From Escherichia coli (GTDB taxonomy: Bacteria > Pseudomonadota > Gammaproteobacteria > Enterobacterales > Enterobacteriaceae): a stretch of 64,000 nucleotides of DNA. Under the pieces are notes generated by a model. It saw nothing but the letters and a program-made list of their open reading frames with translations, made no database searches and had not been told where the DNA came from. Positions 13,938 through 15,360 of the stretch are shown in pieces; the stretch's first letter is position 1; each line of letters starts with the position of its first letter. Location of the stretch: assembly GCF_003334405.1 (NCBI RefSeq), contig NZ_QOWM01000007.1. One strand, written 5' to 3'. Position numbers and translations under genes: made by a program.

Positions 13938-14654
13938 ATGCGTCCAGCAGGCCGTAGCAATAATCAGGTGCGTCCCGTTACCCTGACTCGTAACTATACA
14001 AAACATGCAGAAGGCTCGGTGCTGGTCGAATTTGGCGATACCAAAGTGTTGTGTACCGCCTCTATTGAAGAAGGCGTGCCGCGCTTCCTGAAAGGTCAGG
14101 GCCAGGGCTGGATCACCGCAGAGTACGGCATGCTGCCACGTTCTACCCACACCCGTAACGCTCGTGAAGCGGCGAAAGGTAAGCAGGGTGGACGCACAAT
14201 GGAAATCCAGCGTCTGATCGCCCGTGCGCTTCGCGCGGCAGTAGATTTGAAAGCGCTGGGTGAGTTCACCATTACGCTGGACTGCGACGTGCTTCAGGCT
14301 GATGGTGGCACGCGTACCGCTTCGATTACGGGTGCCTGTGTGGCGCTGGCAGATGCGCTACAGAAGCTGGTGGAAAACGGCAAGCTGAAAACCAACCCGA
14401 TGAAAGGGATGGTAGCCGCGGTTTCTGTCGGGATTGTGAACGGCGAAGCGGTTTGCGATCTGGAATACGTTGAAGACTCTGCCGCAGAGACCGACATGAA
14501 CGTAGTGATGACCGAAGACGGGCGCATCATTGAAGTGCAGGGGACGGCAGAAGGCGAGCCGTTCACCCATGAAGAGCTACTCACCTTGTTGGCGCTGGCC
14601 CGAGGGGGAATCGAATCCATTGTAGCGACGCAGAAGGCGGCGCTGGCAAACTGA
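13938..14654 (+). CDS. rph: ribonuclease PH, full-length 238 aa (wild-type, not the K-12 rph-1 frameshift allele)
   Basis: ORF 13914..14654 trimmed to ATG giving [20 protein letters not shown]...; C-terminus ...ATQKAALAN intact; stop codon 8 nt before the pyrE attenuator hairpin. Confidence 0.95.
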
Positions 14655-14661
14655 TTTTTAA

Positions 14662-14686
14662 GGCGACTGATGAGTCGCTTTTTTTT
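14662..14686 (+). terminator. pyrE attenuator (intrinsic terminator hairpin GGCGACT-GATG-AGTCGC followed by 8 T)
   Basis: GC-rich hairpin plus T-run read in the rph-pyrE intergenic region, 33 nt before the pyrE ATG; matches the known UTP-sensitive attenuator architecture. Confidence 0.75.
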
Positions 14687-14718
14687 GTCTGTAGAAAAGT
14701 AAGATGAGGAGCGAAGGC

Positions 14719-15360
14719 ATGAAACCATATCAGCGCCAGTTTATTGAATTTGCGCTTAGCAAGCAGGTGTTAAAGTTTGGCGAGTTTACGCTGAAATCCG
14801 GGCGTAAAAGCCCCTATTTCTTCAACGCCGGGCTGTTTAATACCGGGCGCGACCTGGCACTGTTAGGCCGTTTTTACGCTGAAGCATTGGTGGACTCCGG
14901 CATTGAGTTCGATCTGCTGTTTGGCCCTGCTTACAAAGGGATCCCGATTGCCACCACAACCGCCGTGGCGTTGGCGGAGCATCATGACCTGGACCTGCCG
15001 TACTGCTTTAACCGCAAAGAGGCAAAAGACCACGGTGAAGGCGGCAATCTGGTTGGTAGCGCGTTACAAGGACGCGTAATGCTGGTAGATGATGTGATCA
15101 CCGCCGGAACGGCGATTCGTGAGTCGATGGAAATTATTCAGGCCAATGGCGCGACGCTTGCTGGCGTGTTGATTTCGCTCGATCGTCAGGAACGGGGGCG
15201 CGGCGAGATTTCGGCGATTCAGGAAGTTGAGCGTGATTACAACTGCAAAGTGATCTCTATCATCACCCTGAAAGATCTGATTGCTTACCTGGAAGAGAAG
15301 CCGGAAATGGCGGAACATCTGGCGGCGGTTAAGGCCTATCGCGAAGAGTTTGGCGTTTAA
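14719..15360 (+). CDS. pyrE: orotate phosphoribosyltransferase, 213 aa
   Basis: ORF 14704..15360 trimmed to [23 protein letters not shown]... Confidence 0.95.

Follow-up and report, generated by a model that had tools for sequence, protein, structure and literature searches.

A natural Escherichia coli rph-pyrE operon with an intact attenuator layout and a one-base-shorter attenuator stem

The pyrBI leader attenuator of E. coli depends on UTP-sensitive pausing of RNA polymerase, and a closely following ribosome blocks formation of the terminator hairpin. The attenuator between rph and pyrE shares this logic, but pyrBI has a dedicated short leader peptide, whereas in rph-pyrE the part of the "leader" is played by the 3' end of rph, a genuine enzyme gene whose product RNase PH is a phosphorolytic 3'-5' exoribonuclease. 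The E. coli rph(orfE)-pyrE intercistronic attenuator was reportedly described by Poulsen, Bonekamp and Jensen in 1984 and by Jensen in 1993, and the attenuation mechanism and the polarity of the rph-1 mutation are likewise said to have been described by Bonekamp et al. in 1984 and Jensen in 1993. In the established model, the expression level of pyrE would be set by the share of transcripts that pass the intrinsic terminator separating rph from pyrE. With ample UTP, RNA polymerase would outpace the ribosome on the last rph codons, the hairpin would form and transcription would end. When UTP is scarce, polymerase would be slow in the U-rich stretch and the ribosome would catch up to the rph stop codon; there it would mask the lower part of the stem's 5' arm and let polymerase continue into pyrE. 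In K-12 rph-1 strains the ribosome would halt 29 nt earlier.

Passages of PMC2784333, PMC6941894 and PMC5933015 cite both this mechanism and the polarity of rph-1. Laboratory evolution has also acted on the attenuator. Knöppel et al. 2018 (PMC5933015), who evolved MG1655 lines in Mueller-Hinton and minimal media, listed pyrE(G-41ΔG terminator) eight times among the mutations and pyrE(G-42C terminator) a single time. They pointed to G-41ΔG as a case of nucleotide-level parallelism and considered that such terminator changes "putatively" raise attenuator read-through and so relieve the pyrimidine defect of rph-1. Morgenthaler et al. 2019 (PMC6941894) reported that the first mutation fixed was an intergenic C-to-T change or an 82-bp deletion.

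Here we examine this junction in a 64,000-nt stretch of E. coli DNA (contig NZ_QOWM01000007.1 of assembly GCF_003334405.1), referred to below as the window. An intact rph-pyrE attenuator is the textbook, already known and majority state of the species, and the locus is, with high confidence, an ordinary example of it: a native, functional rph-pyrE operon with a translation-coupled attenuator in a natural non-K-12 strain. Its attenuator stem is nevertheless one C shorter than the canonical one, by the same deletion that was selected repeatedly in MG1655.

Layout of the rph-pyrE junction

The features of the locus are as follows, with the evidence for each in brackets.

13938-14654, + strand: rph, encoding full-length RNase PH, 238 aa plus TGA (open reading frame, TIGR01966, RefSeq)
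14604-14608, + strand: run of five G, the site of the one-base K-12 rph-1 deletion, intact (alignment with NC_000913)
14623-14625, + strand: out-of-frame TAG at which rph-1 translation ends, unused in the window (sequence, MG1655 protein tail)
14652-14654, + strand: rph stop codon TGA (sequence, list of open reading frames)
14655-14659, + strand: U-rich spacer of five T between stop codon and hairpin (sequence)
14660-14681, + strand: attenuator hairpin (terminator scan, RNAfold, MG1655 alignment)
14678-14679, + strand: site at which one base pair is missing in comparison with MG1655 and most E. coli, GCC to GC (alignment, comparison of carriers)
14679-14686, + strand: run of eight T, the U-tract of the intrinsic terminator (sequence, terminator scan)
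14706-14711, + strand: Shine-Dalgarno-like GAGGAG, 7 nt before the pyrE ATG (sequence)
14719-15360, + strand: pyrE, orotate phosphoribosyltransferase, 213 aa (open reading frame, TIGR00336, RefSeq)
15368-15391, no strand assigned: hairpin after pyrE, where pyrE and slmA converge; the operon end, outside the attenuator (terminator scan)

The rph reading frame opens with ATG at 13938, closes with TGA at 14652-14654 and specifies 238 residues. In a profile search the product scored 380.8 bits against the NCBIfam equivalog TIGR01966 (RNasePH; cut-off 141.5), with Rph residues 2-236 aligned to profile positions 1-235 of 236, that is, end to end. PyrE likewise scored 240.6 bits against TIGR00336 (cut-off 106.8). 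Strain BR1220 is 100% identical to the window over positions 1-25000, and in it RefSeq places rph at 13938-14654 (WP_001247093.1) and pyrE at 14719-15360, exactly as in the window, with dinD and yicC upstream and slmA, dut and coaBC downstream. The original prediction of a full 238-aa RNase PH thus agrees with the open reading frame, the TIGR01966 match and the BR1220 annotation, and judged by its sequence the product is RNase PH at full length. Its 238-aa wild-type C-terminus is shared with E. albertii and other Escherichia.

The K-12 rph-1 allele (MG1655, W3110) occupies the same locus with the same attenuator region, and differs in having four G rather than five and a translation end 29 nt further from the hairpin. 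Alignment with MG1655 (NC_000913, 3814000-3818500) located the rph-1 site at 14604-14608, where the window reads GGGGG and MG1655 reads GGGG, so that the earlier claim of a K-12 MG1655 frameshift absent from the window is borne out and the window's frame is intact. Rph of MG1655 is 228 aa long and ends in ...ARGESNPL; the window's Rph reads on past that point and past the TAG at 14623-14625, 29 nt before the true stop. Because rph is full length, a ribosome would approach the stem to within 5-8 nt, which could allow coupling.

A frameshift of the same kind appears in Kluyvera genomosp. 3 YDC799 (CP022114.1), which has GGGG about 95-100 nt upstream of the pyrE ATG where Kluyvera georgiana and E. 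coli have GGGGG; its Rph tail, ...ARGESNPL*, is identical to that of K-12 rph-1. This genome may have acquired an rph-1-like frameshift independently at this G-run, or its assembly may contain a homopolymer error.

The hairpin consists of a 5' arm, AAGGCGACT (14660-14668), a loop, GATG (14669-14672), and a 3' arm, AGTCGCTTT (14673-14681), whose last three positions are also the first three T's of the T8 run. The stem has four G:C pairs, in a core that spans 14663-14678. RNAfold gave -12.0 kcal/mol for the fold (z = -3.57), with one of 200 dinucleotide shuffles as stable, and together with the terminator scan this confirms the predicted hairpin and T-run behind the rph stop codon. From its end at 14654, the stop codon is followed by 5 nt (TTTTT) before the first A-U pair, 7 nt before G14662 and 8 nt before the first G:C pair (G14663-C14678). 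The distance of 8 nt first proposed, for a hairpin at 14662-14686, is therefore right as the offset from the stop to G14662, but the first pair is only 5 nt away; the end coordinate of 14719 given earlier is the A of the pyrE ATG. All of these gaps lie within reach of a ribosome (under about 10 nt). Ribosomes usually cover 12-15 nt beyond the P site, from which we infer that one with TGA in its A site would reach approximately 14661-14664.

rph and pyrE are adjacent and co-directional on the + strand, with 64 nt between them. Because rph is intact and its stop codon abuts the attenuator, the layout for translation-coupled control of pyrE read-through is present, and on this point sequence and MG1655 alignment uphold what was first proposed. 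The geometry and the intact genes are seen directly in the sequence; that the system would respond to UTP and that the ribosome would occlude the stem is carried over from the literature. A simple sigma-70 scan upstream of 13938 did not find the rph promoter, so co-transcription of rph and pyrE likewise rests on the literature. A TATAAT at 13896-13901 was considered as the rph promoter and dropped for its poor -35 at 17-nt spacing.

Several other features of the neighbourhood were recorded. The pyrE/slmA hairpin, a 10-bp, G+C-rich stem 7 nt after the pyrE stop codon, could be a terminator acting in both directions. An Rfam search of the whole window returned no family matching the attenuator at 14655-14718; its sole match at the gathering score was JUMPstart (RF01707, 53.1 bits) at 22268-22306 on the + strand, upstream of rfaQ, the expected leader of the LPS core operon. 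In E. coli YD786 (NZ_CP013112.1), a gene for a "reverse transcriptase family protein" lies between pyrE and slmA (locus 3521-4480) and may be a retron. The segment upstream of yicC (about 11900-12940 in the window) is not the same in the strains compared: it holds dinD in the window, a tyrosine integrase in PSJ-32-1 and GDSC2239PM, and an ISKox3 transposase in 5CRE51. From these sequences the segment looks like an insertion hot spot.

A one-base difference in the attenuator stem

Genes, gene order, stop codon, spacer and hairpin loop are all those of the described E. coli rph(orfE)-pyrE attenuator, and the surrounding 80 nt of the E. coli majority differ from the window's at one base. The difference is one C fewer in the 3' arm. 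Where MG1655 has AGTCGCC-T8 as 3' arm and T-run, the window has AGTCGC-T8, and it departs from the canonical hairpin GGCGACU-GAUG-AGUCGCC in a 3' arm that reads AGUCGC. As its C partner is absent, G14662 pairs solely as G·U, and the stem has four G:C pairs against five in the MG1655 version. The missing C is an allelic difference, and membership in the attenuator system stands. Predicted stability (RNAfold) falls from -14.7 kcal/mol for the MG1655 hairpin to -12.0 kcal/mol, and that of the G:C core from -11.7 to -8.4 kcal/mol.

Further rph-pyrE junctions were collected by searching one-genome-per-species contigs with a degenerate DNA pattern of the PyrE N-terminus, which gave 120 loci, nearly all from Enterobacterales; 113 junctions were scored, the window and 112 from other Enterobacterales genomes. 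The median core stability over the 113 was -11.6 kcal/mol, and seven had stems of four G:C pairs (the window and six other species). Since six other species have four G:C pairs, so short a stem is compatible with a working attenuator.

The coupling had originally been called wild-type, and this is accurate for the layout but not for the attenuator stem, which is a minority allele. An exact 80-mer with the missing C occurred in 486 of 5,425 complete E. coli genomes (~9%); nearly all the others carry the extra base, and otherwise the 80 nt are almost invariant. GCC is kept in E. albertii, two other Escherichia species and E. coli E69, and the deletion is therefore derived. The rph 3'-end haplotype of the window is the commonest one in a BLAST search with a 99-nt query (14582-14680, its last 2 nt trimmed in non-carriers), whose identity bands do not separate carriers of the deletion from non-carriers. 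As a separate variant of the same terminator, E. coli YD786 (NZ_CP013112.1; attenuator at about 2540) has a T9 run instead of T8.

The missing C corresponds to position -41 from the pyrE ATG in MG1655 (a G on the reference strand). In pyrE(G-41ΔG terminator), the deleted base pair and the resulting hairpin, AGTCGC-T8, are identical to the window's; however, that mutation arose in rph-1 strains selected for higher PyrE levels, whereas the allele of the window is natural and accompanies an intact rph. A synthetic 95-mer combining the rph-1 G4 with the missing C had no exact match in 5,425 complete genomes, so the deletion is not seen as a fixed suppressor in any K-12 derivative of the collection. 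Among the matches listed, carriers of the missing C spanned 96 nt for the 95-nt query, which means that they have five G.

Whether the shorter stem would slightly lower termination and thereby raise basal pyrE expression seems to us evenly balanced. In favour of such an effect are the thermodynamic loss and the laboratory selection of the same mutation, and the point is in part inferred. An account in which the missing C has no functional effect in an rph+ strain, and the allele hitch-hiked in one successful clade, falls a little short of an even chance, as do its specifics, namely that ribosome coupling dominates and that four G:C pairs plus a G·U and an A-U pair followed by U8 terminate as well as a stem with five G:C pairs. 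The distribution of the allele fits this account. Seven of eight carriers compared (L73, ECCTRSRTH03, VR50, O157:H16 98-3133, UMNF18, WP2-S18-ESBL-08 and 5CRE51) have the haplotype of the window and differ from it by at most one SNP (0-1) between yicC and dut. Over 25 kb, some 525 genomes match the window with 99% identity or more, a number close to the 486 carriers, so that the allele is essentially a marker of one clade, as a single ancestor would produce. The species with naturally four-G:C stems point the same way, and no genome combines rph-1 with the deletion, indicating that in nature the deletion does not compensate for that defect. However, the same base was repeatedly deleted under selection in MG1655, from which it follows that the deletion alters pyrE output at least in an rph-1 background, the predicted loss of stability is 2.7-3.3 kcal/mol, and the other Escherichia species sampled all retain GCC. 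A further proposal, which we consider tentative and rather unlikely, is a natural regulatory allele that raises pyrE read-through and spread with one successful clade, the wild population then carrying the very mutation that laboratory evolution of K-12 keeps selecting.

Conservation of the junction across Enterobacterales

An alternative is that the hairpin is only the terminator of rph and that pyrE is transcribed as a separate unit, in which case the position of the stop codon would be without regulatory meaning. Intrinsic terminators often lie a few nt past stop codons, and at pyrE's own terminator the gap between stop and hairpin is also short (7 nt), so a short gap is not specific to attenuators. 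However, the hairpin on the rph side behaves differently across species. Of the 113 junctions, 110 have a terminator-like hairpin after rph, 105 have a gap of 5-8 nt from the rph stop codon to the first G:C pair, and 111 have a T-run of 6-9 nt, whereas at the same loci a comparable hairpin occurs within 100 nt after pyrE in just 34 of 101, at distances of 6-48 nt. The independent-unit interpretation is further opposed by published genetic work on the polarity of rph-1 and on its suppressors (82-bp and -41/-42), and a sigma-70 scan saw no promoter-like site between 14686 and 14719. We therefore regard it as very improbable and retain the translation-coupled attenuator.

The total rph-pyrE spacer varies from 57 to 200 nt over the 113 junctions while the position of the hairpin is nearly fixed, which places the variable part downstream of the terminator. 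Most junctions have a T-rich spacer between stop and hairpin, and GAGGAG or AGGAG before pyrE is conserved in the junctions compared. Within the hairpin, the core GCGAC...GTCGC is largely conserved in sequence and the outer pairs vary. Compensatory changes were found at four of seven predicted stem pairs in a MAFFT alignment that is imperfect owing to differing loop lengths, so these counts are supportive at most. The conserved distance from stop to stem is the pattern that would be expected if that distance is under functional constraint.

Individual junctions deserve mention. That of Raoultella terrigena is normal. In Budvicia diplopodorum D9, where the spacer measures 164 nt, a longer G+C-rich stem that lacks a T-run comes after the rph stop, and the usual attenuator seems, from this sequence, to have been altered or lost. 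Contig CACSKA010000004.1, labelled Chryseobacterium sp. 18061, has an enterobacterial rph-pyrE junction nearly identical to that of Citrobacter sp. 18056 from the same project, and the assembly is probably mislabelled or contaminated.

Origin of the strain and of the missing-C allele

One carrier stands apart from the clade described above. In STEC299, from a marmot, the deletion lies on a B2-like haplotype, matching that of Nissle 1917, with 18 SNPs in rph and 16 in pyrE relative to the window; this strain has no dinD, and yicG adjoins yicC. The missing-C allele may have arisen a second time on this background. A 241-mer with the B2-like haplotype and the deletion identified no second genome among 5,425, so that the case for a second origin comes from one assembly, and either an independent origin or an assembly error in that genome would explain it. 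For the window itself, a sequencing or assembly error, which we consider extremely improbable, is refuted as the source of the missing C: the site adjoins the T8 run, and the only carrier on a differing haplotype is a single genome and could be such an error, but 486 complete genomes, obtained independently by many laboratories and from many hosts, contain the exact 80-mer.

The intact rph is the normal state of E. coli. An 80-mer with the exact MG1655 rph-1 sequence was found in 167 of 5,426 complete E. coli genomes, and its carriers among the matches listed belong to the K-12 laboratory strains, MG1655 and J53 being examples; all other matches listed span 81 nt, indicating that the extra G is present. 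With rph-1 in only 167 genomes, an intact rph says little beyond "not K-12". Across about 4.5 kb (yicC-rph-pyrE-slmA-dut), the window and MG1655 differ at 53 positions, including nine substitutions in rph and two Rph amino-acid changes (A138V and T216I), and the first 25 kb of the window are 100% identical to isolates from goose, opossum, pig, wild bird and human. The 53 differences identify a natural non-K-12 strain rather than a repaired K-12, and the window is natural non-K-12 E. coli. Descent from a K-12 derivative in which rph-1 had been restored is thus refuted, with practically no probability left to it, by these differences and by the 25-kb identity with wild isolates, even though the rph frame is restored relative to MG1655 and repaired K-12 strains exist (the CM13 genome is one position off the MG1655 80-mer). 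Of the two origins first offered for the window, a non-K-12 background or a repaired strain, only the former stands.

The intact rph serves mostly as a sanity check: this is a natural E. coli and not a K-12 laboratory strain, and normal pyrimidine regulation is expected of it. The papers searched gave no description of natural polymorphism in the pyrE attenuator. As a minor point of wider interest, the attenuator is polymorphic in nature, and its minority allele is the deletion that K-12 gains under laboratory selection. Should the allele affect how strongly an rph+ strain expresses pyrE, it would offer a simple example from nature of attenuator tuning by one base pair and, if true, a caution against assuming K-12 or "majority" attenuator behaviour for other strains.
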